A stretch of DNA of 64,000 nt, taken from contig CALVDF010000013.1 of assembly GCA_944326245.1 (NCBI GenBank), forward strand, positions 2,713-66,712. The letters run 5' to 3'. Below the pieces are notes generated by a model. That model did not search any database. It was not told the origin of the DNA and saw only the letters and a list, made by a program, of their open reading frames with translations. The position numbers and the translations under genes are program-made. This document shows, piece by piece, positions 265-53,938 of the stretch. This DNA comes from an uncultured Bacteroidales bacterium. Lineage in GTDB: Bacteria; Bacteroidota; Bacteroidia; Bacteroidales; UBA932. Within the stretch, counting starts at the first letter, position 1. Each line of letters opens with the position of its first letter.

Positions 265-1173
265 TCTTCCCTGCCAGGTGTCGCGCTCCTCGAGACGGTT
301 TTCGAGCAGGCGGATGAGTTCGGCATTGCGTATGAGTCCCCATGGAGTGGAATTGACGAATCTGGGCGGGACTTCCCCGGCAATTCTTTCTATGTACAGA
401 TCCGGTCTGAGCCGTTCGAGGATGTCCGTCATGAAATCCAGGTACCCGTCCAGTGAAAATGTCACGAAATCGTCAGGATGTGATGCGAATTCCTTTTCCA
501 TGGCCGTGCCCTTGACTATCTGGAGCTGATGGAATTTGACTGAATGCAGGGGCAGTCTGTTGATGGCTTCCGTATATTCCATCATGTCAGCGATATTTTC
601 TCCAGGCAGACCGAAGATGAAATGTGCTCCCTGTCTGATCCCGCGTGAGGCTGTCATTTCCACAGCCCGAACGGCATCGGCAAATGTATGTCCCCTGTTG
701 ATGCGGGCGAGTGTCCTGTCATGGCATGACTCTATGCCGTATTCGATGATGACGATATGCTTTTCGGCCAGCGATGCGAGATAGTCCAGTATGGCATCAT
801 CGACACAGTCCGGCCTGGTACCTATGACAATGCCGGCAACAAGCGGATGCGAGAGGGCTTCTTCATAGATCCTGCGTAGTCTGTCCAGAGGGGCATAGGT
901 ATTGGAGTAGGGCTGGAAATACGCCAGAAACTTTTCCGCCTTGCGGTACCGTACCCTGTGGAATGTGATGCCCTCGTCTATCTGTTTGTAAATAGGTATG
1001 CCGGGAGTGCTGTATCCGGGGTGGAAGGCAGCATTGTCGCAGTATGTACATCCTCCTGTAGCGACACGGCCGTCACGGTTGGGACAGGTGAACCCTGCGT
1101 CAATCACGACTTTCTGCAGGCGCTCACCGTAGGTGGCCCTGAAGTAGCCTATGTAGGAATTGTACCTTCCCAC
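238..1173 (-). CDS. TIGR01212-like radical SAM protein
   Basis: 311-aa ORF with N-terminal GFTCPNRDGRVATGGCTYCDN (a radical-SAM Cys cluster as in the YhcC/TIGR01212 family). The start appears to be GTG. Its 3' end overlaps the convergent regulator by 27 nt. Confidence 0.8.
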   Translation of the reverse strand: MGRYNSYIGYFRATYGERLQKVVIDAGFTCPNRDGRVATGGCTYCDNAAFHPGYSTPGIPIYKQIDEGITFHRVRYRKAEKFLAYFQPYSNTYAPLDRLRRIYEEALSHPLVAGIVIGTRPDCVDDAILDYLASLAEKHIVIIEYGIESCHDRTLARINRGHTFADAVRAVEMTASRGIRQGAHFIFGLPGENIADMMEYTEAINRLPLHSVKFHQLQIVKGTAMEKEFASHPDDFVTFSLDGYLDFMTDILERLRPDLYIERIAGEVPPRFVNSTPWGLIRNAELIRLLENRLEERDTWQGRLLGKKPAL

Positions 1174-1175
1174 TG

Positions 1176-1622
1176 TTACAGCCTCACTTTGAATACAGCC
1201 TTGCGGATGGGCCCGTTACCAATCAGAGGTGCATGGCAGTCCTGGGGAAAGCAGATGACGAAATTGTCATCGGAGTAGCTGACATAGGCTTCCGGCCTCT
1301 CCTTGAGAAATGCGGTGTCTGTGGCCTCATCGTATTTGACTTCTACGCCAAGGCATTTTGAACGGTCCCGGAATCCGATGATCTCGCTTCCTTCCAGTAC
1401 TACATGAATGTCTATGAATGAGTCGTGGACTTCGAGTTGCACGTCCGCTTCGTCCTTGCCTTCCGTAATGGATACGGTGCACCATATGTTGTTCTCTTCG
1501 ATGATGTACTTGCCTTCCCCGATGGAGTGCAGGTCGTTCTTTTTCAGGAATTCCAGCACTTTGCTGAAAGAAGCATGGATGTTGAGGTACCTTTCGAAAC
1601 TTTTTATTGAATCAAGTATCAT
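1176..1622 (-). CDS. YhcH/YjgK/YiaL (DUF386) family protein
   Basis: Trimmed to the ATG at 1622 (MILDSIKSFERY...). HDSFIDIHVVLEGSE and CFPQDCHAP resemble the EbgC/TabA-like cupin family. Confidence 0.65.
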   Translation of the reverse strand: MILDSIKSFERYLNIHASFSKVLEFLKKNDLHSIGEGKYIIEENNIWCTVSITEGKDEADVQLEVHDSFIDIHVVLEGSEIIGFRDRSKCLGVEVKYDEATDTAFLKERPEAYVSYSDDNFVICFPQDCHAPLIGNGPIRKAVFKVRL

Positions 1623-1645
1623 TGTATCAGAATGTTGAAGTGTTT

Positions 1646-2791
1646 TCAGTATTTTCTGTAGATGGCCCTGCGGCTCAATGCCATGAGCACTGTAAGCAGG
1701 ATGATTACGGCTGCTGCCGGATGCAGTGTCTGGGGAAGAATCCAGGAGAATATCAGGCACAGGGCGGAAACGGCGGCAAGAATGTCTATGATGAGGTTCT
1801 TGGCCCAGGAATCAGGCATGAATACAGGTATGAGGAAGATGGGGTTCATCCACATCAGGTTCCAGTTATTGGCGGTCCATACATGCTCGGTGGCAAACCA
1901 CATCAGGCAGATGATGACGCCTCCCAGGCCCAGGACAATGTACAGGACAGTGGAGCAGATGCTCATGAATTTCCATTTGTTGCGGCTGCGCAGGTACAGC
2001 ACGAGATAGAGCACAAACAGGACGGTGAAGATGGAGAAAGGGCTAGTTGCCTTCGACAGGATCCTTGCTGCCTTGCCAGGCCCGGGAGCCGGCTCGGACA
2101 ATACCGTTGAAGATGTCATGAGCCTGCAGTCCAGAGTGTCGTTCCTGTATGAGGCTAGTATCGGGGACAGCCGGTCCGGCAGAAATTCAGATTCCCTTAC
2201 CGTGATCCTGCGGTCGACTTTGGCTCCCAGTATGAGGTCGATGCCGAACATCATCCATCGCCTGTCTCCGACCAGCCGTGTGAGCTCTTCGCGGTAAGTC
2301 AGGTCTGAAAGTGTATCGTCGAAGCTGAATCCCGGAGTGGTTTCGAAGATGTCCCTTATGCGCGTGGCGCAGTTGTCCTGAAGAAAGTCGTATAGATAAA
2401 ATCTGTTTGCGGGCTGATAGTTCTGCAGAAGGAATGCGTATATTTCCGATGCCTGTGCGGGAGTAAGGTTCATGTCCTGTTCCGTGATTCCGCGCCCGGC
2501 TTTGTCGTAGGAAACTTTGAAATTTTCAAAAGAATTGACGGACAGGCAGTAATTCAACTCTCCGCGCAGGAATTTCAGCATGAAGTGCGGTTCGTTGAAA
2601 CTGAATGTGCCATAGTTGAAAACCATGTCCCTGCCGTGGCGCAGATCCTTTACCCTCAAGGCGGAATGCCCGAATGCAGAGGCGATGTCATCTCCCTGGG
2701 AACATGTGAGCAGGGAGACGCTCAGTGAGTCCTGGGCTCTTGCGGATGCGGCAGCGGCGACCAGAATAAAAACAAGTAGAATCCGTTTCAT
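1646..2791 (-). CDS. DUF4105-like (Lnb N-terminal domain) membrane protein
   Basis: Trimmed to MKRILLVFILVAAAASARAQ (signal peptide). It has a periplasmic N-domain followed by several C-terminal hydrophobic helices. Confidence 0.55.
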   Translation of the reverse strand: MKRILLVFILVAAAASARAQDSLSVSLLTCSQGDDIASAFGHSALRVKDLRHGRDMVFNYGTFSFNEPHFMLKFLRGELNYCLSVNSFENFKVSYDKAGRGITEQDMNLTPAQASEIYAFLLQNYQPANRFYLYDFLQDNCATRIRDIFETTPGFSFDDTLSDLTYREELTRLVGDRRWMMFGIDLILGAKVDRRITVRESEFLPDRLSPILASYRNDTLDCRLMTSSTVLSEPAPGPGKAARILSKATSPFSIFTVLFVLYLVLYLRSRNKWKFMSICSTVLYIVLGLGGVIICLMWFATEHVWTANNWNLMWMNPIFLIPVFMPDSWAKNLIIDILAAVSALCLIFSWILPQTLHPAAAVIILLTVLMALSRRAIYRKY

Positions 2792-2837
2792 AATAAATAA
2801 TTTCAAAAATACGAAAAACTCGCCTATATTTGCAGGA

Positions 2838-3806
2838 ATGAAGAAAGTTTTGTTCATAATTCTGTCTGTGGCCCTCATTTCCGTGTCAATGCTTCCGGCT
2901 GCCGCCAGGAACAGCATGGGCCTGATTTCTGTGTCAGTGACCGATATGAAGAAAGCCCCGGACTATCAGTCCGAGACTGTCTCCCAGGCGACTATGGGCA
3001 CTCCGGTAGAAGTGACAGGCAAGGAAGGGTACTGGTATTCGATCATTACTCCTGAAGGGTATACGGGCTGGACGACCGAGCAGAACATAGCGTTGTTGTC
3101 CGACGGGCAAATGGAGGCGTGGAAAAAGTCAGTGCGCCTTATCGTGAAGGATTATTTTGCAATTGTAACGGCTTTGCCTGAGGAAGGGGCCCCCGTGGTC
3201 TCGGACTGCGTGATGGGCAATATTATCGGGAAGGGGAAGGCACAGTCCGCGGCCGGTTTTACTGCTGTGGTTCTGCCTGACGGCAGGGAAGGATTTGTTC
3301 CTTCCGGAAGTGTAGTCCCGCTGCGGGAATGGATGGAAAGTGTCTCGTCTCCTGATGGAGAGGACATTGTGGCTACGGCCCGTCTTTTCCTGGGATTTCC
3401 TTACCTGTGGGGCGGACTTTCCCCCAAGGGACTTGATTGCAGCGGACTGGTCAAATTGAGCTATTTCCTGAACGGAATAATCGTCCTCAGGGATGCCTCC
3501 CAGCAGATCGGGACAGGGGAAAGCCAGGACTGCAGCCGGATAACGGAGACTCTTCAGCCGGGGGATCTGGTGTTTTTCGGCCGCGGTGCGGCAGACAGCC
3601 GCGGGAGAAGTGTCAGCCATGTGGGCATATACGCAGGTGACGGCATGATGATCCATTCCTCCCTTCGGGTCCGTATGAATTCACTGCTGCCCGGACTTGA
3701 GGATTCCTATACGAGCAAGCAGATCGTAGGGGCAACGCGCATATTGGGATGTCAGGACAGGGAACCGGGTATAGTGACGGTCCTGAGGCATCCATGGTAT
3801 TTTTGA
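2838..3806 (+). CDS. NlpC/P60 (C40) peptidoglycan peptidase with SH3-like N-domain
   Basis: Start set at MKKVLFIILSVAL (signal peptide). GLDCSGLV (catalytic Cys) and SHVGIY (His) motifs are present. Confidence 0.85.
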   Translation: MKKVLFIILSVALISVSMLPAAARNSMGLISVSVTDMKKAPDYQSETVSQATMGTPVEVTGKEGYWYSIITPEGYTGWTTEQNIALLSDGQMEAWKKSVRLIVKDYFAIVTALPEEGAPVVSDCVMGNIIGKGKAQSAAGFTAVVLPDGREGFVPSGSVVPLREWMESVSSPDGEDIVATARLFLGFPYLWGGLSPKGLDCSGLVKLSYFLNGIIVLRDASQQIGTGESQDCSRITETLQPGDLVFFGRGAADSRGRSVSHVGIYAGDGMMIHSSLRVRMNSLLPGLEDSYTSKQIVGATRILGCQDREPGIVTVLRHPWYF

Positions 3807-3843: not shown

Positions 3844-4125
3844 ATGAATCTCAGAGTTATCAAAAAAGACATCAACTACATGGTGAACGAGTTCGTATCG
3901 GACGCAGTCATCAGCATGAGTTTCCATGAAGACAAGGAAAAGGCAGAGCAGATAGTGGCTCTCATCAACGATGTTCTCGATCTGCGCGACGAGACACTCT
4001 CCAAGGTCAGCCATCCTGAAGGGGACAAGAAGGCCTATTACCGCAACCTCACCGACGAGCTGCTCAGCGCTCTCGATGTAAAGTACGACAATCTCAGTGC
4101 AATAGTGGCCAAGAAAGCCGAGTAA
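3844..4125 (+). CDS. hypothetical small protein
   Basis: 93-aa ORF with an ATG start in an otherwise non-coding gap directly upstream of guaB. I recognise no motif. Confidence 0.45.
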   Translation: MNLRVIKKDINYMVNEFVSDAVISMSFHEDKEKAEQIVALINDVLDLRDETLSKVSHPEGDKKAYYRNLTDELLSALDVKYDNLSAIVAKKAE

Positions 4126-4143
4126 CCAATAGGAACGGCCGCT

Positions 4144-5613
4144 ATGCAGATATATACCAATTCCCCTATAGTGGAGGGCCTCACATTTGACGATGTCCTC
4201 CTTATCCCTGCCCATTCTGACGTATTGCCGCGTGAGGTGGATGTTTCCACCAAGCTGACCAGGGAAATATCTCTTCATACTCCTATCGTGTCCGCAGCCA
4301 TGGATACTGTCACGGAGGCCGATCTTGCTATCGCAATAGCCAGGGAGGGCGGTATAGGCGTAATTCACAAGAATATGCCTATAGAGGTCCAGATGGAGCA
4401 GGTGCGCAAGGTAAAGAGGGCTGAGAACGGCATGATCTATGATCCGGTGACCATCAGGGAGAACGCAACTGTAGCCGATGCCCTCAATCTCATGCATGAG
4501 AACCACATCGGGGGCATTCCTGTTGTAGATGAGCACGGAATGCTCTGCGGTATTGTCACCAACCGTGACCTGCGCTTCCAGGACAATCTCAAGACTCCGG
4601 TGAGTGAAGTGATGACCAAGGAGAATCTTGTGACCACTACTGACGGTACCAATCTCAAGGAAGCTACCGAACTCCTCCGCCGCTACAAGATAGAGAAGCT
4701 GCTTGTAGTCGACAAGGTGGGTCATCTGGCAGGACTTATCACCTACAAGGATATAATGAAAATCAAGGACAATCCTACTGCCAGCAAGGATTCCAAGGGA
4801 CGTCTTCTCGTGGCTGCAGCTGTCGGCATCAACTCCGAAAGTGTGCAGAAAGTGGAGATGCTCATGAGTGTCGAGCCGGACGCGCTTGTTTTCGATACGG
4901 CACACGGACATTCAGAAGGTGTCCTCAGGGTATTGAAGACAGTACGCAAGAAATTCCCTGATCTTCAGATTATTGCAGGAAACATTGCTACGGGTGAAGC
5001 CGCTCTGGCACTCAAGGAATGCGGAGTGGATGCAGTAAAGGTGGGTATAGGTCCAGGTTCGATCTGCACTACCCGCATCATCGCCGGTGTAGGTGTACCT
5101 CAGCTGTCTGCCATAATGATGGTTGCAGAGGCCCTGAAGGGTTCAGGCATACCTGTAATCGCAGACGGAGGTATCCGTTATTCGGGAGATATAGTGAAGG
5201 CTCTGGCAGCCGGAGGCGATACCATCATGGCCGGCTCCCTCTTTGCCGGAGTCGAGGAGTCTCCTGGAGAGACCATTATCCTCAACGGGCGCAAGTTCAA
5301 GTCATACCGCGGAATGGGCTCTCTCGAAGCCATGCAGCTCGGCTCCAAGGACCGTTACTTCCAGGACATGGAGGAAGACATCAAGAAGCTGGTTCCGGAA
5401 GGTATCGTGGCTCAGGTCCCGTACAAGGGAACGCTGGCGGAAGTGGTTTATCAGCTGGTTGGCGGTCTGCGTTCGGGTATGGGTTACTGCGGTGCCCACA
5501 ATCTCGCGGAACTCAAGAAGGCCCGTTTTGTACGCATTACAGCCGCCGGTATGGCCGAAAGCCATCCGCACGATGTGACCATCACGCGTGAGGCTCCAAA
5601 CTACAGCAGATAA
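4144..5613 (+). CDS. guaB: IMP dehydrogenase
   Basis: 489 aa with a CBS pair inserted in a TIM barrel. [11 protein letters not shown] (catalytic Cys loop) and [10 protein letters not shown] are present. Confidence 0.97.
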
Positions 5614-34980: not shown

Positions 34981-35212
34981 GGGGTGTGGCAGTATTGTGC
35001 TTGCCCTGCAGTTCATTGTCCTGAAGCGTGTGCTGTCAGTCTGTTGTATTCCTGCTTGGTAGGAAATTGATGTCTGAATTATGAAACACCGCTTGTTTTC
35101 TAATTGCCTGATAATAAGTGCTCTGTAAAACAGTTGGTGTTTGAAGAGGCCTTTTTTCGGGTCAAGAAACACCTATGACTTTAACAAGTTGCTGAGCGTC
35201 ACTTGTTTGGCA
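34981..35212 (+). repeat. degenerate remnants of the 168-bp repeat family (copy D)
   Basis: 34981-35005 (GGGGTGTGGCAGTATTG) resembles the right-end block GGGGTGCGTCAGTACTT. 35080-35212 shares the ordered blocks GTAAAACAG / TTTTCGGG / GCGTCAC with copies A-C but is shorter. Confidence 0.35.
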
Positions 35213-35291
35213 TTTATGCCGGTGTTTGATAATTCAAGACAGGATGGTATCGGTACCCGTCTCAGGTTTTTGCGCGGCCGGAGATTTTTCC

Positions 35292-35326: not shown

Positions 35327-36181
35327 ATGAAGAAGTATTGGCATGTGTGTACTGAAGGGTTGAAGCAGGGAGTTATCTTCAGTGACAGGGAGGATTTTGT
35401 TTTCGGGATGAACGGTATCCCGGTGTGTGCTTTGAAGCATCGTATTCTGGTGCTTGCTTTCTGTCTGATGGACAATCATGTACATTTTATTGTGGCCGGT
35501 GAGGAGCAGGACTGCCGCAAATTTGCGTTTTCGTACAGACGCAGGCTGTCTGTCCTGGCGGACATGGAGGGTTCGGATGTGTGCATGAAGGCTATCGGAG
35601 ACATGGAATATCTCCGCATGGCTATCGGATATGTGCTCCGCAATCCGATGGATGCAGGCGGAAAGGAATTGCCTTTTTACTATGAATGGGGTTCGGGGGC
35701 GTTGTATTTCAGAGGTGACGTGTCCGTGCCGTCCCGAGGCCGGAACTCTCAGTCTGTAGCAGATGTGGGCCCCAAGAAAATGCGTGCACTTCTAAAGTCC
35801 AATTTCATTCTTCCGGACCATTATGTGGTTTCACCGGAAGGTATGGTATTGCCGGAAAACTATGTCAGGGCCGATATCGTAGAGCGTGTGTTCGGGCTTC
35901 CTGTCCGTTTGATCTACAGTGTCCTTCGCAATGATACAGTAGAGATGGAACTGGCAGGGGAGGTACTGCGCAAGGTCCGTTACACTGATATGGAGCTTGC
36001 CGGCTCCGTGAAAGGTCTATGCAGACAGAAGTTCCGGGCGGAATCTCCCGAAAGCCTTGCCGTGGAGGACAGGTGCCGTCTGGCAGACTTGCTGAGGAAG
36101 AGGTACGGTATAGGTATCAAGCAGATATCAAGGCTTACAGGTGTGAATCCGGAAATTTTGTCGAGGATGTTCGGGCGTTGA
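35327..36181 (+). CDS. RAYT-like HUH/Tyr (IS200-type Y1 transposase fold) protein with C-terminal HTH-like tail, copy 1
   Basis: 284 aa. The HUH motif is CLMDNHVHFIV. The Tyr motif AIGYVLRNPMDAG compares with E. coli RayT DYIYINPVKHG. The C-terminus is RYGIGIKQISRLTGVN. Confidence 0.65.
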   Translation: MKKYWHVCTEGLKQGVIFSDREDFVFGMNGIPVCALKHRILVLAFCLMDNHVHFIVAGEEQDCRKFAFSYRRRLSVLADMEGSDVCMKAIGDMEYLRMAIGYVLRNPMDAGGKELPFYYEWGSGALYFRGDVSVPSRGRNSQSVADVGPKKMRALLKSNFILPDHYVVSPEGMVLPENYVRADIVERVFGLPVRLIYSVLRNDTVEMELAGEVLRKVRYTDMELAGSVKGLCRQKFRAESPESLAVEDRCRLADLLRKRYGIGIKQISRLTGVNPEILSRMFGR

Positions 36182-38658: not shown

Positions 38659-38825
38659 CCGTAAGTACTGCAGCGGGGGTGTTTTGTAAACGCTCAGTGA
38701 TCAGTTAGTTACAAAACAGAGTGTTCTTTCGGGTGGCTCTGAACCCGACTAAAGTTACTCGTGACTTTTGGAATGTCTTAATTTACAAGCCTTTCTGAAA
38801 AAGGGGTGCTCGCCTGCTTACCGTT
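38659..38825 (+). repeat. 168-bp REPIN/MITE-like intergenic element, copy A
   Basis: It aligns end to end with copies B and C. The left end is CCGTAAGTAC... and the right end is ...CTGCTTACCGTT (inverted termini). It lies between the trx terminator and the porin 3' end. Confidence 0.7.
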
Positions 38826-38834
38826 GGCCTTGTA

Positions 38835-40038: not shown

Positions 40039-41124
40039 CTACATCCTCAGCCGTCCGAAGTGCAGTGTGCCTTCAGCGTCCTCAGTCAGGGCGTAGACGG
40101 TGTTCTCAGTCCCGTCATAGCACAGTTTCACGATTGTCATGTCTGTCCGTATGAGTTCCAGTGGACGGCCCTCACGGTCGAACACGGCGATGTCTGAGTA
40201 CATCTGTCCCATGTCAGGCGTATAGTCGTCGTAGTATCTCTGTACGGGAGTGTGTCCGTCGTAGGAGGTGTAGATCCTGTCGTCGGTGCAGCAGATGTCG
40301 GCGAATCCTGCGATGGTGTTCTCGTTGAAATCATAGGTGTACTCCAGCGCCTCGATGTCCGGCTTCACGAAGTACCGGATGCCTGTGGGTTCCAGCCGGT
40401 CATCCTCTATGGAAAATATCTGCAGTACGGCTCCGTAGAACGTGCCTATGACGCACCGGCTGCCGTCGGGCGAGAGGTCCATTACGGAATTCCAGTACAG
40501 GTATTCGTTCATGCGTCCGGTTTCGTCCGGTATTTCCTGGAGAGTGTGCCGGGACAGAACGTTTCCGTCAAGGGTCTGGAGCAGCAGTTCTATCGGGAGC
40601 TCATCGTCCAACGGGGCGGTGAACCCGGCCTTGGATGTCTGGTTGAGCAGGATGCCGTCTCTGATGTAGATGCATCGGTTTGTCCTGCCGGTCCCCTCCA
40701 TTTTTATCTCCCTGACGGGATAGCTGCTGTGAATGAGCGAGTCCACCGGGAAGCACTGCATGAGGTTCTGCGTCAGGTCGTAGTAGTACAGAGTGTCGTT
40801 CCGCAGGGACGGTGCCCTGTCCCCCTGGATGGTCTCGCCCGGTCCGCGTCCTTCCCGGATGGCACCGGCGACCGGAGCACCTGTGTGCTTGTCGTAGATA
40901 TGCAGCGTTTTCCGGGTCTGCATGTTGAGTGCAGGCAGCACTAACCAGTCCTTGTATACGTAAAGATCCTGAGCGGTATTGAAGAGCAGCCCGTCACCGA
41001 GTATCTCGAAACAGGCCTCCCTCTCGACAGGAAATACGGGCGGCTCGTATCTGATATTGTTCCGGCCGCAGCCGGTCAGGAGCAGTGATGTCACCAGAAG
41101 TGCGGGTGTGAGCAGACGTTTCAT
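40039..41124 (-). CDS. beta-propeller-type lipoprotein (Bacteroidales 6-bladed propeller-like family), paralog 1
   Basis: 361 aa with lipobox MKRLLTPALLVTSLLLTGCG. It has a repetitive beta-strand-rich body and is a paralog of the next gene. Confidence 0.6.
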   Translation of the reverse strand: MKRLLTPALLVTSLLLTGCGRNNIRYEPPVFPVEREACFEILGDGLLFNTAQDLYVYKDWLVLPALNMQTRKTLHIYDKHTGAPVAGAIREGRGPGETIQGDRAPSLRNDTLYYYDLTQNLMQCFPVDSLIHSSYPVREIKMEGTGRTNRCIYIRDGILLNQTSKAGFTAPLDDELPIELLLQTLDGNVLSRHTLQEIPDETGRMNEYLYWNSVMDLSPDGSRCVIGTFYGAVLQIFSIEDDRLEPTGIRYFVKPDIEALEYTYDFNENTIAGFADICCTDDRIYTSYDGHTPVQRYYDDYTPDMGQMYSDIAVFDREGRPLELIRTDMTIVKLCYDGTENTVYALTEDAEGTLHFGRLRM

Positions 41125-41155: not shown

Positions 41156-42214
41156 CTATAGCCGTCCGAGGCGGAGTCTGCCGTCGGTGTCCGTGACTAT
41201 GGCGTAGACGGTGCCTTCTGCCTCGTCGCAGCACAGCCTGTTGATGCTCAGGCCGGTCTTGATCAGCTCTAAAGGCCGGCCCTCCCAGTCGAAGACGGCG
41301 ATGCGGGTGAAGAGCGGATGGTCCTCGGGCATGAATTTGATTATGTTGATGCCGTCGTATGCAGTGTAGATTCTCTCATTCCCGGCGTAGATGTCCTGAA
41401 AGCCGAGTCTGGACCGGTCCGTGTGTTCGTAGTGATGGTTGCGGCTGTGGCGCAGCAGGATCTTCACGAGCGGCTCGATGTAGTAGTTGAGGCTCCTGAG
41501 CCGGAGCGTGTCCCCGATGTCGTAAGTCTCCAGGATGGCTCCCCTCCATGTCCCGAAGACTGCCCGGCTGCCGTCGGGCGAGATGTCGCCGCGGGAGGAG
41601 CGGTAGACGCATTCTCCTAAGTACGGATTCTCAATGGGATGAATGTCGCAGGCGGCGGTGATTCTGCCCTGAGCCTTGTCGTACAGCTCCAGCCGGGATG
41701 TCCCGGAGAGGGAGTCGGTGTAGCTGTTGTTGTGGTACAGGTACCGGTCTCCGAGGTCCCAGGTCCTGAGATTGCTTCCGGGCAGCAGGACCGGACTCTG
41801 GCTGACGGTAGGAGTCTCCTCGTCCAGCATGTCGTTTACGCTGAAGACCAGCTCAGTCTCCAGCAGACCGTCGATATACCGCATCCAGCCGTCCATAAGG
41901 GTGGTCATGGCGTATCCGTAGTAATTCCGGCCCGGGGCCTTGCCGAACTGGATGGAACCGGTCACTTTCTCTCCGCTGGTCTTGTCGAATATGTGGAACG
42001 TGTTGCCGCTCAGGGTGTCGTGTCCGCAGACCAGCAGGTAAGGGCCGTAGACGTAGATATCCCCGGCATCCCGCAGGGTCAGCGGCTCTCCGATGAGTTC
42101 GAAGCGGGCGCTCCGCTCTGTGGGGAATTCGGGCTCCCGGTATCTGTCCGTGCCGCCGCAGCCGGTCAGGAGCAGAACTGTCATTAGAAGTGCGGGTGTG
42201 AGCAGACGTTTCAT
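41156..42214 (-). CDS. beta-propeller-type lipoprotein, paralog 2
   Basis: Start set at MKRLLTPALLMTVLLLTGCG. It shares the AVFDxEGRPLELIxT and SPDGSR blocks with paralog 1. Confidence 0.6.
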   Translation of the reverse strand: MKRLLTPALLMTVLLLTGCGGTDRYREPEFPTERSARFELIGEPLTLRDAGDIYVYGPYLLVCGHDTLSGNTFHIFDKTSGEKVTGSIQFGKAPGRNYYGYAMTTLMDGWMRYIDGLLETELVFSVNDMLDEETPTVSQSPVLLPGSNLRTWDLGDRYLYHNNSYTDSLSGTSRLELYDKAQGRITAACDIHPIENPYLGECVYRSSRGDISPDGSRAVFGTWRGAILETYDIGDTLRLRSLNYYIEPLVKILLRHSRNHHYEHTDRSRLGFQDIYAGNERIYTAYDGINIIKFMPEDHPLFTRIAVFDWEGRPLELIKTGLSINRLCCDEAEGTVYAIVTDTDGRLRLGRL

Positions 42215-42235
42215 GGCAGTTTTATTGTTATTCGC

Positions 42236-42243
42236 CAAATTTA
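42236..42243 (-). promoter_or_regulatory. -7 promoter box (TAAATTTG on the minus strand) for the lipoprotein pair
   Basis: The reverse complement of CAAATTTA is TAAATTTG, 22 nt upstream of the ATG at 42214. Confidence 0.45.
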
Positions 42244-43223: not shown

Positions 43224-43391
43224 TGGTAAGCAGTGCAGCAGGGTGTTTTTGCAAACACTCAGTGATCAGAGAGTTACGGAAGAGCTGTGATCTTTTCGGG
43301 ATGTTGTGAGGGTGCGGAAAGATCATGCTTGATTCGCATTGTCTTGAATGTCAGTGTTTTGCAAAATAGGGGTGCGTCACATCTTACCGTT
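43224..43391 (+). repeat. 168-bp REPIN/MITE-like intergenic element, copy B
   Basis: TGGTAAGCAGTGCAGCAGGGTGTTTTTGCAAACACTCAG ... CAGTGTTTTGCAAAATAGGGGTGCGTCACATCTTACCGTT. The left and right ~45 nt are imperfect inverted repeats of each other. Confidence 0.75.
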
Positions 43392-43456
43392 GCGGGAACT
43401 GGCGGCTCTGAGCCGGATTTGGGCTTCTATCCTTGAGGGTTGTGATCCTGGCTGTT

Positions 43457-44377
43457 CTATGCCAGTCCGTTCTGCACCGGACTGTTCTGGCCTGGAGCGC
43501 TTTGGCCGGGATGGAAGACTTGTCCGAGCAGACTGATGCTGGTGTGGGTGAGGCGTGCCAGCTGCTTGATGCCCAGGCCGTATTGTTTCCGGAGGATGTC
43601 TGCCAGCTGATACTTCTCGTCTATGCTGAGCGCATCGGGAGAAGACTTGCTGAATATTTCGCTGCAGAGGTTCGTGACGGTGGAGGCCATCTCGCTGTCA
43701 GTGTAGCGGGCCCGCCGGAGGATTCCGGATGTCAGCTCCATCTCCATACTGTCGTTGCGCGAGAGGAAGTAGAGCATCCTGACGGGGCTGCGGAATATCT
43801 CCTCGACGGCGCGGTAGTCAACGTAGCATCCAGGGCAGATGAGTCCGTCGGCCGTTACGGTGTAGTGTCCAGGCAGCTGTCCGCGGGTGCGGAACAGTTT
43901 CTGCCGCCGCCGCTTGCTCATGTGTGCGATATCTGTGACCGGCCGGTTGGCTGTCAGCGTGTTGCCGTCGTTGAAATACAGAGGACCGGAGCTCCATCGG
44001 TAATGCGTCGGGAGGACGGCCAGTCCGGCTGCGGGAGGGTTGCGCAAGACGTAGGCAATCGCCCGTTTAAGGTACTCGGTATCGTCAATTTCTTTCATGC
44101 AGATGTCTGCGCGGCTCATGTCGGCCATGGTGAAAAGTCGCTTCCGGTAGGCCTTGATGAATCCACCGCAGTCCTCTTCGGTGCCGTGGGCTATGAAATG
44201 GACGTGATTGTCCATCAGACAGAAAGCGTGCATGGATATGTCTCTGTCAGCCATGCATGCCGGAATGCTGTTCATCCCGAAAATGTAATCGGCGTCAGTC
44301 TTGAAAATGATTTCTTTTTCCAGTCCGGCTGTGCAGATGTGCCGGAAATTTTTCTCCTGCTCCATAATCTTTCGCAT
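43457..44377 (-). CDS. RAYT-like HUH/Tyr protein with C-terminal HTH-like tail, copy 2
   Basis: 306 aa with FCLMDNHVHFIA (HUH), AIAYVLRNPPAAG (Tyr motif) and QYGLGIKQLARLTH. It is roughly 40% identical to copy 1 by eye. An alternative ATG lies at 44365. Confidence 0.65.
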   Translation of the reverse strand: MRKIMEQEKNFRHICTAGLEKEIIFKTDADYIFGMNSIPACMADRDISMHAFCLMDNHVHFIAHGTEEDCGGFIKAYRKRLFTMADMSRADICMKEIDDTEYLKRAIAYVLRNPPAAGLAVLPTHYRWSSGPLYFNDGNTLTANRPVTDIAHMSKRRRQKLFRTRGQLPGHYTVTADGLICPGCYVDYRAVEEIFRSPVRMLYFLSRNDSMEMELTSGILRRARYTDSEMASTVTNLCSEIFSKSSPDALSIDEKYQLADILRKQYGLGIKQLARLTHTSISLLGQVFHPGQSAPGQNSPVQNGLA

Positions 44378-44397
44378 CTATCGGTTAATGACTGCCT

Positions 44398-44405
44398 CAA
44401 AGTTA
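44398..44405 (-). promoter_or_regulatory. -7 promoter box (TAACTTTG on the minus strand) for RAYT-like gene 2
   Basis: The reverse complement of CAAAGTTA is TAACTTTG, 21 nt upstream of the ATG at 44377. Confidence 0.45.
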
Positions 44406-44431
44406 GGAATTATATTCTGACTGTGCAACAA

Positions 44432-44599
44432 CGGTAAGCAGGGACGCGGGTACTTTTTGTAATCGCTCGGAAGTCAGAGGGTTAAGAAAGAGGGGTGTGC
44501 TTGTCGGTGGGTTGTGAAGGTGCGAAAGATTCTCGTTGTATTGGTAATGCTGTGAAAAATAGTTGATTATGAAAATGGGGTGCGTCAGTACTTACGGTT
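44432..44599 (+). repeat. 168-bp REPIN/MITE-like intergenic element, copy C
   Basis: CGGTAAGCAGGGACGCGGG ... GTTGTGAAGGTGCGAAAGAT ... GGGGTGCGTCAGTACTTACGGTT. It is in the same orientation as A and B. Confidence 0.75.
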
Positions 44600-44696
44600 A
44601 ATCCTTCGTAGGCTCGGACGCGGGTGTTTGCATACCTTTCTAGATGCTGGCTGCCTGTCGGTTCTACCCGGTCGTGTGGGCTGAACAGCAGGAAAC

Positions 44697-45455
44697 TCAG
44701 GGATTGAGCATGATGGTGTTGACGGTACGGCCGCAGGAGGGGCCTTCGCGGCGGGCTGAGAAGAAGCCGGGGTGGGAGTAGGTGTCGATGCCGGAGATGA
44801 GGATGTTGGGGTCATGGACACCGGCCCGGATGAGGGTCAGGCGGACGGCTTGGGGAAGGTCTATGTGGAGGCCGCCGGACATGGAGCCGGGGATGCGCGG
44901 GCCGCGGTCGGTGATAAGGCGGACAACGGTTTTGCCGGTGCTGGCCGTGCCGTAGTCATCAGTGTCCGGCCGGGACCATGTCTCAGGAAATCCGGCGGCG
45001 AGGAAGGCTTCGGCGACTTCCGGACCGACCTGGAAGCTTTCCGGGCCGATGCCGGGACCGATTACCGCCAGGATGTCGGCGGCGCGGGTGCCGTACTTGG
45101 AGGCCATCACAGCCAGGGTCTTGGCTGCGATTTTCAGCACCGTGCCCTTCCATCCGGAATGTACTGCCGCCACGACCCGCCGCACCGGATCGTACATCAG
45201 CACCGGTATGCAGTCAGCCGTCCGGGCCCCTATCGCAACGCCCGGCACGTCAGTTACCAGCGCGTCATAGCCCTCCAGCTCTTCCCGTGTAGTACCTGCC
45301 GAAGTCACCACGGCCACCCGGTCTCCGTGCACCTGATGTGCCTGCACCACCCTCATCGGCAGCACGGCGTCCCTCAGCGGGGAAAATGCCGTAACTTCAG
45401 GGGCTATGTCATATTTCAGCAGGCCGTCGGAACCGCTCGGGAAAATCTGTCTCAT
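44697..45455 (-). CDS. pgeF: polyphenol-oxidase/laccase-domain protein (PgeF/YfiH family)
   Basis: QAHQVHGDRV, ADCIPVL and HSGWKGT motifs are present. The ORF-track start at 45470 is a TTG, so I use the ATG at 45455 (MRQIFPSG). Confidence 0.85.
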   Translation of the reverse strand: MRQIFPSGSDGLLKYDIAPEVTAFSPLRDAVLPMRVVQAHQVHGDRVAVVTSAGTTREELEGYDALVTDVPGVAIGARTADCIPVLMYDPVRRVVAAVHSGWKGTVLKIAAKTLAVMASKYGTRAADILAVIGPGIGPESFQVGPEVAEAFLAAGFPETWSRPDTDDYGTASTGKTVVRLITDRGPRIPGSMSGGLHIDLPQAVRLTLIRAGVHDPNILISGIDTYSHPGFFSARREGPSCGRTVNTIMLNP

Positions 45456-52607: not shown

Positions 52608-53600
52608 ATGAATAATTCCCTAAAGCTGTTTTTCACAATCACGATATTATTGTCAGTGTCTATGCTCATAGTGTCAGCTCAGACGCCTGTCCCGGAGTCT
52701 GAGCTGATAATATACAAAATGCAGAATTACCGTGACCACAATCCCCTGTATTTCATGGAGGCGGATGAAGTCTACAGAGGTGTGAGGATGATGGCCGACA
52801 GCTCATACTCGGCTCATAAGGACAGTCTCGGTAATCTCGTCCTGGACCGCAAGCGCGGCGGTAATGAATATACCTATGATACACTTGGACGTATAACCTC
52901 CAATCCCGGAGTTTGGGTCAGCTATCAGTACGAGGGTAATGTTCTGGAAATTAAGGGAGTGGCGAAAGAGGACTGCCGCCTGTCTTTCAAGTATAGGATA
53001 GAATATGCCGGAAAGTATCCGGTCCGCAGGAGTATGGTCCATATCAATTATAAGGGAGATGAGGTAAAATCGGAGGAGTGGTGGACCTATGACCGGTTCG
53101 GCAGAATGACAGGATATACGGTAGTGGATGAGGGATCGACATTGTCTGATTCCATTTACGCAGTGATAAGTTATAACGGTTATCACACCTATGACCGCAG
53201 GAATATAACTGTGTGTCTAAGTGAGGGTCTGCTGTACTACAACCGTCTTGACCAGTATGATGACGCCGGCAGAATAATCCGCTCGTACATATGCGATGAA
53301 TATGACTGGACGCAATGTGTCGAGGAATACGAGTATGCGGACAGTCTGAATGCTGCGCCCTATGTCCGGACCACCTCTATCATTCAAAGCAGCTCTCATC
53401 CCGCCAATAAGAAAATCAGGGAGACCTATGACTCCAACGCTTGGCTTGTCCGTGTCGAGGAATCGGAAGACGGGGTGATGCCATTTTCAACCAAAGAGGA
53501 AATCAAAATAGAATACGATGACAGGGGCAATGTCGTAAAGTGGTTCTTTATCTCCCCTTGGTGGTGTCAGTGCGATTTTGTCGAGTACGAGTATTATTAG
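52608..53600 (+). CDS. secreted hypothetical protein with YD-repeat-like motifs
   Basis: It has a signal peptide. YxYDxxGR-like motifs recur (YTYDTLGRI, WTYDRFGRM, QYDDAGRI, EYDDRGNV). It appears more AT-rich than its neighbours by eye. Confidence 0.45.
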   Translation: MNNSLKLFFTITILLSVSMLIVSAQTPVPESELIIYKMQNYRDHNPLYFMEADEVYRGVRMMADSSYSAHKDSLGNLVLDRKRGGNEYTYDTLGRITSNPGVWVSYQYEGNVLEIKGVAKEDCRLSFKYRIEYAGKYPVRRSMVHINYKGDEVKSEEWWTYDRFGRMTGYTVVDEGSTLSDSIYAVISYNGYHTYDRRNITVCLSEGLLYYNRLDQYDDAGRIIRSYICDEYDWTQCVEEYEYADSLNAAPYVRTTSIIQSSSHPANKKIRETYDSNAWLVRVEESEDGVMPFSTKEEIKIEYDDRGNVVKWFFISPWWCQCDFVEYEYY

Positions 53601-53650
53601 AGTTGTTGATGCGTAGGTCAGGATGTATGGCAGGGCATGGCGGTAAATCC

Positions 53651-53938
53651 TCAGTGCAGATATGACTTTAATGCTTCGACGTACGCGGCGAAGGCACGCG
53701 CCCCCGTCTCCGTTATCCTGCACACCGTCCGCGGCTTCTTCCCCGCAAACCCTTTCTCGACAGAGATGTACCCTGCCTCGGAGAGCTTGTCGATCTGCAC
53801 GCTCAGATTGCCGGCAGTGGCTCCGGTGGCCTCGCGCAGGTACACGAAGTCGGCCTCTTCCATGGTCAGCAGGGTGGACATGACGGCCAGACGCAGTTCG
53901 GAGTGCAGCAGCGGGTCGAGTTTCGCAAATTCTCCCAT
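53651..53938 (-). CDS. winged-helix transcriptional regulator (small, ArsR/MarR-like)
   Basis: 95 aa. LHSELRLAVMSTLL...AGNLSVQIDKLSEAGYI is a typical wHTH. Confidence 0.7.
   Translation of the reverse strand: MGEFAKLDPLLHSELRLAVMSTLLTMEEADFVYLREATGATAGNLSVQIDKLSEAGYISVEKGFAGKKPRTVCRITETGARAFAAYVEALKSYLH

Follow-up and report, generated by a model that had tools for sequence, protein, structure and literature searches.

A RAYT-like Y1/HUH gene between direct copies of a palindromic element in Candidatus Coprenecus

Among domesticated transposases that are kept together with their own repeats inside one lineage, the REP-associated tyrosine transposase (RAYT), with the repetitive extragenic palindromes (REPs), is the textbook example. 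To our knowledge, such systems are understood almost only in Proteobacteria. Here, a locus of comparable build is described from Candidatus Coprenecus, an uncultured chicken-gut genus of Bacteroidales. The window, meaning the whole stretch of DNA that was analysed, has a length of 64 kb. It contains the gene Y1a, which codes for a predicted Y1/HUH tyrosine endonuclease and lies between two direct copies (repeats B and C) of a near-palindromic element of about 168 nt. We consider it probable that this locus is REPtron- or TIRtron-like, i.e. that a domesticated, vertically inherited enzyme of the RAYT kind (class 2 TnpA-Y1) is kept together with its cognate elements.

Described systems and the Y1a locus

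In REPtrons a RAYT (TnpA-REP) is combined with REPs arranged as bacterial interspersed mosaic elements (BIMEs) or REPINs; YafM of E. coli (4er8) and the RAYTs of Pseudomonas are examples. Y1a shares with these enzymes the Y1/HUH fold, the motifs Y-x-x-x-N-P and W-S-S, the single copy per type, vertical inheritance and purifying selection. Furthermore, the gene is bracketed by palindromic doublets, solo copies also occur outside of genes and mostly between convergent ones, and several distinct enzyme-repeat pairs are found per genome. In contrast, Y1a is about twice as long, with a C-terminal domain of ~170 aa, has no W[EQ] motif and stays below the NCBIfam and Pfam cut-offs. A REP is a hairpin of 20-40 nt with a 5' GT[AG]G foot, whereas the Y1a repeats measure ~168 nt and have no such foot. 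REPtrons comprise tens to hundreds of near-identical repeats, but only about 5-10 old copies were found here, a number which is a lower bound. The hosts differ as well, with Bacteroidales on the one side and Proteobacteria on the other.

TIRtrons contain a RAYT-like enzyme (TIRYT, TnpA-Y1 subclass 2.1) with the motifs NHVH and Y[IV]xxNP and a C-terminal extension of the helix-turn-helix (HTH) type (PMC3733652, PMC6006769), and all of these features are comparable to Y1a. Long flanking repeats of non-REP type in small families are a further likeness, and the G-run GGGGTGCG of the Y1a repeats matches seven of the eight positions of GGGGWSAS. However, the C-terminal domain of Y1a is larger and matches neither Bac_DnaA_C nor HTH_23 or HTH_28, and its flanks are direct copies of a palindromic element instead of one inverted-repeat pair. 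Around subclass 2.1 genes no repeats were reported (Quentin 2018, PMC6006769).

TnpA-Y1 subclass 2.6 (group 5 of Bertels, mostly Bacteroidetes), which was compared by its description only, agrees with Y1a in phylum, in NH[LIV]H and in the SS motif; its proteins differ by a length of ~179 aa, by W-Q and YIH[QN]NP and by the lack of a long C-terminal domain. The insertion sequences (ISs) of the IS200/IS605 type, such as IS608 and ISDra2, have the Y1/HUH fold and hairpin-bearing sequences in direct orientation on each side of the gene. Unlike these, the Y1a locus shows neither multiple copies nor recent transposition, has Y...N-P instead of Y...Q, ends in whole palindromes of ~168 nt and is without tnpB.

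The original prediction, made from the letters of the window, had placed a RAYT with cognate repeats in a phylum not known to be characterised in this respect, and had called the extra C-terminal domain atypical. Both are less unprecedented than assumed there, since RAYT-like subclasses 1.2, 2.4 and 2.6 with 'atypical' flanking structures are described for Bacteroidetes and HTH extensions for the TIRYTs of subclass 2.1 (PMC6006769, PMC3733652). Nevertheless, the domain of Y1a matches none of those described, and no paper on this family of Bacteroidales turned up in our literature searches. Four traits set the family apart from the described subclasses: a C-terminal domain that is long and unmatched, a lost W[EQ] motif, flanks made of direct doublets of ~168 nt, and several ancient paralog-repeat pairs in each genome whose repeats have a very low copy number. 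Four rival explanations were weighed against the reading given above. Ordered by decreasing weight, these are host regulatory or terminator-like DNA, att-like sites, an IS200-like element and miniature inverted-repeat transposable elements (MITEs).

The Y1a protein and its inheritance

The locus is made up of the following features:

43457-44377, minus strand: Y1a, gene of a predicted Y1/HUH tyrosine endonuclease, open reading frame (ORF) of 306 aa, assigned by motifs, AlphaFold2 model, Foldseek and the ratio of nonsynonymous to synonymous substitution rates (dN/dS)
44365, minus strand: ATG (MEQEKNF...), likely true start of Y1a, from conservation among orthologs
43224-43392, plus strand: repeat B, near-palindrome of ~168 nt, found with nhmmer and in all orthologous loci; the profile matches both strands
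44432-44599, plus strand: repeat C, same element in direct orientation, found with nhmmer and conserved in orthologous loci
44399-44406, minus strand: TAACTTTG, in the spacer that separates repeat C from the start codon, in agreement with the -7 consensus of Bacteroidetes (TAnnTTTG)
38661-38826, plus strand: repeat A, solo copy of the B/C element family at a distance of 4.5 kb, with a thioredoxin and a porin-like gene converging on it

The ORF of 306 aa with an HUH, a Tyr and a tail peptide is present as originally predicted; the peptides are FCLMDNHVHFIA (residues 52-63), AIAYVLRNPPAAG (106-118) and GLGIKQLARLTH (267-278). Its start has to be revised. Instead of the ATG at 44377 most orthologs have AAG or TAG, whereas the ATG at 44365 is conserved. 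Thus, Y1a probably comprises 302 aa, and one gene call in a public contig has this length. Repeat B sits 64 nt past the stop codon, between the convergent RimK-like gene and Y1a, and repeat C 54 nt upstream of the annotated ATG (44377), close to the 65 and 55 nt given before. The spacer between repeat C and Y1a is kept in 12 of 12 orthologous loci. The -7 box that had been noticed in this spacer is likewise retained in all 12, including those with 73% and 88% protein identity, and TAACTTTG may be regarded as a putative promoter element.

In an alignment of 60 homologs, reaching down to 36% identity, the residues N57, H58, H60, Y109, V110, N113, Y126 and W128 are invariant and V59 is nearly so. 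The HUH motif reads NHVHF and is located on strand E59-64 of the model; the Tyr motif reads YVLRNP, with Y109 and N113 in or beside helix H100-111. The class 2 signature Y-x-x-x-N-P is conserved in the family, as is Y-x-W-S-S (YRWSS), which is listed as a RAYT subclass motif (PMC6006769, Table 1). An AlphaFold2 model of Y1a was obtained with a pLDDT of 89. In a Foldseek search of the PDB with this model the best match was 4er8_A, the RAYT-REP complex of E. coli (E=2.5e-5, probability 1.0, TM 0.60, 129 columns), followed by the TnpA proteins of ISDra2 and IS608, also with probability 1.0. Fold and motifs support the assignment of Y1a to the Y1/HUH enzymes with RAYTs as nearest relatives, as had been proposed, and catalysis is predicted.

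The RAYT-like core extends over about residues 1-130, and the family-specific extension of ~170 aa behind it ends in three short predicted helices (GIKQLARLT stretch). No match to Bac_DnaA_C, HTH_23 or HTH_28 of Pfam was found for this domain in 20 members, and a profile search of the PDB found no relative. With Foldseek the best match had E=0.72, with weak matches to assorted HTH domains; DnaA was ranked 41st (E=3.7). An HTH-like tail is plausible from the model.

A word-indexed search gave 357 homologs of Y1a. The full HMMER scan, clustered at 50% identity, gave 557 clusters at E≤1e-30, 5,579 at E≤1e-10 and 19,396 at E≤1e-3. In their sources these proteins are labelled 'hypothetical protein', 'transposase' or 'Transposase IS200-like domain'. 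The family of 557 clusters lives in gut Bacteroidales (Coprenecus, Cryptobacteroides, Merdivivens, Muribaculaceae), and one homolog (P0091) is reported from Muribaculum sp. An289.

Loci from 15 GTDB species representatives have Y1a at one and the same position, with 73-97% protein identity, and B and C flank it in every one of these loci that extends far enough. The comparison with ten orthologs yielded dN/dS values of 0.11-0.28; Y1a is under purifying selection. Among 23 metagenome contigs of the same species that encode an identical YfiH-like neighbour, the gene was present in all six distinct contexts shown, and no strain-level absence was seen among them. At least three paralogs occur per genome, with at most 57% identity to one another, and orthologs of the other paralogs with at least 80% identity nearly always have both flanks in common. 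Such a profile of inheritance is described for RAYTs, unlike insertion sequences (Bertels 2017, PMC5581495), and the inheritance of Y1a matches the RAYT profile, not that of insertion sequences.

These data bear on the explanation of the locus as an IS200/IS605-like insertion sequence, in which the direct copies would be the left and right ends with subterminal hairpins and Y1a their own transposase. The fixed position in 15 species, the presence in every context shown for the 23 same-species contigs, the absence of near-identical gene copies (within-genome paralogs ≤57% identical) and the ordinary housekeeping neighbours speak against it. Moreover, the class 2 motif Y-x-x-x-N-P differs from Y-x-x-x-Q of IS200 (PMC6006769), and the solo copies are whole elements and not a left plus a right end. 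On the other side, the direct flanks resemble the left-end and right-end hairpins of IS608 and ISDra2 (PMC3333891), the flank copies in loci L119, L139, L141 and L154 are 96-98% identical, and the orthologs of L106 and L112 (86% identity) have neither flank in common. Taken together, we regard an insertion sequence as very improbable.

Two irregular orthologs were observed. In L025/L073, on the short contig CASGDV010000020.1, Y1a stops short at residue 125 and continues into the sequence of window positions 53614-52318, which is either a real rearrangement through Y1a or a chimeric contig of a metagenome-assembled genome (MAG). In L010/L024 (BRZ_BB bin35) tblastn splits the ortholog into two overlapping out-of-frame pieces at about residues 111-119. 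This apparent frameshift would mean a pseudogene in the species concerned, unless the assembly is at fault.

The palindromic element and the layout in relatives

With a three-copy profile, nhmmer recovered repeats A, B and C at E-values of 1e-46 to 1e-50 and matched no other site of the 64-kb window. This agrees with the original assignment of B and C as copies of one element. All three lie on the plus strand, so that Y1a is placed between direct copies; B and C are 75% identical. Each copy is a near-palindrome of ~168 nt that matches the profile on both strands. The termini are conserved and inverted (TAACGGTAAGCAG...CTGCTTACCGTTA, GGTAAG...CTTACC), the arms carry the motifs TTTTGYAA and TGATCAG-N4-TTAC, and the centre forms a hairpin of up to ~20 bp in the most symmetric copies. 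In build, the element is closer to a REP doublet (BIME/REPIN) than to a lone REP. In 16 paralogous copies 66% of the positions are paired in the full-dyad structure, compared with 39-45% in a slid register. The dyad symmetry is real, and conserved columns explain all of it.

The census was a pattern scan of 185,579 genomes with nhmmer on the matches, and its copy counts are lower bounds. It confined the element family to Coprenecus and close relatives. About 20 pattern matches in unrelated taxa were rejected as chance matches. Roughly 5-10 element loci occur per genome, namely A, B, C and a copy 'x' near the gene, and D to G elsewhere. Each is fixed at its orthologous position with ~90-97% identity across species; this includes repeat A, which is found at the orthologous position in other species too. 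Paralogous copies are 50-78% identical to one another. In the deepest comparisons (dS=0.55) the identity of orthologous copies is still 67-76% and equals that of paralogous ones; because they have remained this similar, about half of the element positions look constrained. Solo copies occur outside of genes, in most cases where two genes converge, and their 8-kb loci contain no Y1 gene.

The layout of a gene between repeats was examined in relatives with 80 loci fetched from Bacteroidales genomes (Coprenecus, Cryptobacteroides, Merdivivens, Muribaculaceae and MAGs of rumen or caecum), out of at least 446 matching stretches. For the 62 loci with both flanks, 480 nt upstream were aligned with 480 nt downstream, and 300 shuffled locus pairs served as control (mean 10.6, 99th percentile 16). 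Flank similarity exceeded the 99th percentile of the control in 37 of the 62 loci, mostly in direct orientation and with scores up to 165. When only direct repeats were considered, 35 loci remained, with a median aligned repeat of 90 nt (range 26-258) and 85% identity; several pairs, e.g. those of L119, L139, L141 and L154, reach 96-98%. The pairing of a RAYT with cognate repeats is thus borne out by bracketing in every ortholog of Y1a and by own repeats in 35-37 of the 62 relatives' loci.

These repeats are paralog-specific and conserved along with the orthologous genes. Each RAYT enzyme is reported to have its own repeat (PMC6006769), and the paralog-specific repeats of the Y1a family match this one-enzyme-one-repeat rule. 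Termini of the Y1a type (GGTAAG...CTTACC) are essentially missing near other paralogs, since those have repeats of their own. The repeats of relatives differ in sequence, yet they are alike in build: inverted repeats on the outside, arms rich in A/T (TTTTGTAAAC, ATCAA...TTAC) and a GC hairpin in the centre. Significant self-complementarity was detected in 15 of the 35 flank repeats.

In Cryptobacteroides, paralog-specific arrays or three copies were observed in L159 (2067-2359 and 3506-3791) and L165 (1664-1789, 2211-2376 and 3558-3699), which recall the variable BIME numbers of E. coli REPtrons. In L085, the locus of the distant relative P0053, short hairpins at 2768-2822 and 3911-3950 (GGTGCC...GGCACCTTT, 75% identical) flank the gene; this is weak evidence. 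At 4070-4300 of the same locus a cobalamin-riboswitch-like leader was noticed by eye ahead of a TonB-dependent receptor gene.

A second explanation concerns the elements as DNA or RNA in the regulation of the host. They could be bidirectional terminators, 3'-UTR (untranslated region) stabilisers, genes of small RNAs or protein-binding palindromes, and the protein could be a regulator without nuclease activity, or the elements could only insulate the gene. The location of the solo copies at gene 3' ends between convergent genes agrees with this, as does the GC-rich central hairpin with A and T runs alongside, which is terminator-like in many relatives. The element sequence is conserved without compensatory covariation, its internal palindromes TTTGCAAA and TGATCA resemble dimer-binding sites, and the protein ends in a predicted HTH. 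However, a scan of A, B and C revealed no terminator-like site. No Rfam family was found in the window at the gathering score, and B and C were unmatched at E≤1, the sole match at this level falling inside the Y1a ORF (E=0.51). Identities of 85-98% between the two sides of one gene, as seen in 35 loci, would not be expected of ordinary terminators that belong to unrelated genes. Finally, none of the 60 divergent homologs has lost the catalytic H, H, Y or N, and this speaks for retained chemistry. A regulatory role in place of enzyme action therefore ranks first among the rivals, and we judge it unlikely.

The 13-bp terminal inverted repeats (TAACGGTAAGCAG), the TA often found at both outer ends and the typical size would also fit MITEs that derive from an unrelated DDE transposon; TA could be a target duplication, and the Y1 gene would be next to them by coincidence. 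But two of the about 5-10 copies directly bracket Y1a in all 15 species' loci fetched, and different repeats show the same layout in 35-37 of the 62 relatives' loci, far above the shuffled control. As the copies are in addition old and divergent and none of the fetched loci showed a matching transposase, this explanation is extremely improbable.

Two further features of the window are needed for the comparisons below:

35327-36181, plus strand: Y1b, paralog of Y1a with 284 aa, the same motifs and 46% identity to Y1a
53642-53655, plus strand: GGTAAATCCTCAGT, probable element remnant or junction, from comparison with the related species of L021

Y1b is not bracketed by the A/B/C element, as nhmmer over the window matches A, B and C only. 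The gene is located 8 nt from the OxyR-like LysR gene, with no space for a downstream copy. In its upstream spacer of 367 nt an element-like stretch (about 35060-35240) was noticed by eye, with TTGTTTTCTAA..., CTTTTTTCGGG and the inverted pairs GAAACACC/GGTGTTT; the element profile does not detect it. The neighbours of Y1a are ordinary or housekeeping genes (RimK-like, Cu-oxidase_4/YfiH, thioredoxin, OxyR-like LysR), and no tRNA or tmRNA gene was found in the window. Two tandem paralogous lipoprotein genes of 361 and 360 aa are located at 40039-41124 and 41156-42238 on the minus strand and have DUF5128 or TolB_like matches in public gene calls. Their 5' ends have a stretch of 61 nt in common (92% identical), the remainder being far more diverged, and in some species only one of the two genes is present (L012/L013 alignments).

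Rearrangements at the elements and interpretation of the locus

Synteny breaks and variable inserts between species abut the elements. In L019 the region of window position 53651 is joined directly to the copy upstream of the gene. In L012, L013, L024 and L078 the 330-aa gene of window positions 52608-53600 is missing, and a different copy, 'x', lies there. L021 has a full C-like copy (1341-1508) exactly where the window keeps only GGTAAATCCTCAGT. Hence this one site was seen in three states, with the 330-aa gene and GGTAAATCCTCAGT in the window, a C-like copy in L021 and the 'x' copy in the four other loci. The sequence at 53642-53655 had been considered as a clean empty site, which was rejected, as the comparison with L021 shows a remnant or a deletion junction. 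L022 carries an insert of 2.6 kb (1143-3735; about window 44640-44700) directly at the outer end of repeat C, which contains an XRE-type HTH gene and two ORFs resembling lipoproteins or membrane proteins. L096 and L097 encode 96% identical proteins and diverge right upstream of the gene, and L106 and L112, with 86% identical proteins, have neither flank in common. Recombination at the elements would account for these rearrangements, but so would homologous recombination between dispersed repeats.

The breakpoints also bear on an explanation of the elements as att-like recombination sites, at which the Y1 enzyme would excise, integrate or rearrange the DNA between copies. A circle of the gene and one element could integrate into a solo element, which would leave the gene between two direct hybrid copies; solo copies would then be empty or target sites. 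The locus would belong to a cassette or genome-rearrangement system of gut Bacteroidales, driven by a single-strand HUH enzyme, in which each paralog would serve its own family of sites and solo elements and synteny breaks would be its footprints. Direct repeats bracket the gene family-wide, solo copies of the same element family exist, some flank pairs are nearly identical, and the interspecies breakpoints include what looks like an 'x'-C deletion in L019 and the 2.6-kb insert beside C in L022. Yet no locus was found in which a solo element takes the place of the gene, and Y1a was present in every same-species context shown. The identity of B and C is only 75%, and between species each of them follows its own ortholog, so that there has been no recent exchange at the Y1a locus. 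We regard a function as recombination sites as rather improbable and rank it second among the rivals.

The reading as a REPtron- or TIRtron-like locus is carried by the fold, the catalytic motifs, purifying selection, the fixed position, the family-wide layout and the constraint on the element. Several observations weigh against it. The W[EQ] motif is absent from Y1a, and the corresponding columns (ICMKEI) are unconserved and without Trp. In the E. coli RAYT the W[EQ] region (beta4) contacts and recognises the GTAG foot of REPs. Also on the side of the protein, Pfam Y1_Tnp (PF01797) scored 12 bits on Y1a against a cut-off of 23 (E=0.23) and NCBIfam NF047646 (REP_Tyr_transpos) 29.1 bits against a cut-off of 80 (E=7.6e-7). 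Both models thus stay below their cut-offs but give weak matches, which for Y1_Tnp extend to 17 of 20 relatives (E≤0.1; best 5.4e-7). A family sequence profile run against the PDB reached no solved Y1 structure; 4er8 was found by the fold search alone. Furthermore, we know of no member of the Y1a family with known biochemical activity.

On the side of the element, no short hairpin with a GT[AG]G foot was found in it; its length is about five times that of a REP and its copy number is low. Base pairing is a further point. Shuffles within columns pair 66.2% of the positions, equal to the dyad value observed, and no compensatory covariation beyond column conservation was detected in the 16 copies (score 0.193, shuffled 0.191); RNAalifold on three copies was unconvincing. 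As the shuffles reproduce both dyad pairing and covariation, selection for base pairing is not demonstrated, and a role in the binding of a protein to double-stranded DNA fits the symmetry equally well. In addition, neither a recent-looking copy nor a clean empty site was seen in the loci and same-species contigs compared, and about 40% of the relatives' loci have no detectable flank repeat.

The original prediction goes further than the data in one respect. It had suggested a possibly self-maintaining system of REPIN-RAYT type, whereas about 5-10 loci per genome (a lower bound) were found, which are old, 50-78% identical to their paralogs and fixed in position. Owing to the low copy number, the age of the copies and the lack of a clean insertion polymorphism, an active REPIN swarm is not supported. 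The repeats are not canonical REPs either, given the unit of ~168 nt and the missing GT[AG]G foot. The RAYT-like assignment and the bracketing by cognate repeats are supported, and none of the three outcomes named with the original prediction as contrary evidence was encountered: a Y1/HUH fold is predicted, the Tyr and His residues are conserved, and relatives are accompanied by their own repeats in 35-37 of 62 loci.

How such an enzyme might act can be sketched by analogy with TnpA-REP of E. coli, which binds and cuts single-stranded BIMEs (PMC3333891). Y1a would recognise the element when the palindrome extrudes as a hairpin in single-stranded DNA, e.g. at replication forks, and would cut and rejoin it via a 5'-phosphotyrosine at Y109, with H58, H60 and N113 holding the metal. 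The helical or HTH-like C-terminal domain may add DNA recognition specific to the paralog. As a result the elements would be maintained, rarely copied or recombined, while the gene itself would stay in place.

Y1a belongs to a large unnamed family in abundant gut Bacteroidales, with several ancient paralogs per genome, most of them between palindromic elements of their own. If the enzymes act on these elements, the family would provide a second, independent setting for asking what such systems do for their host. It would also help to explain synteny breaks and would offer many natural enzyme-site pairs of differing specificity. If the enzymes do not act on the elements, the family would represent an HUH enzyme turned into something else.

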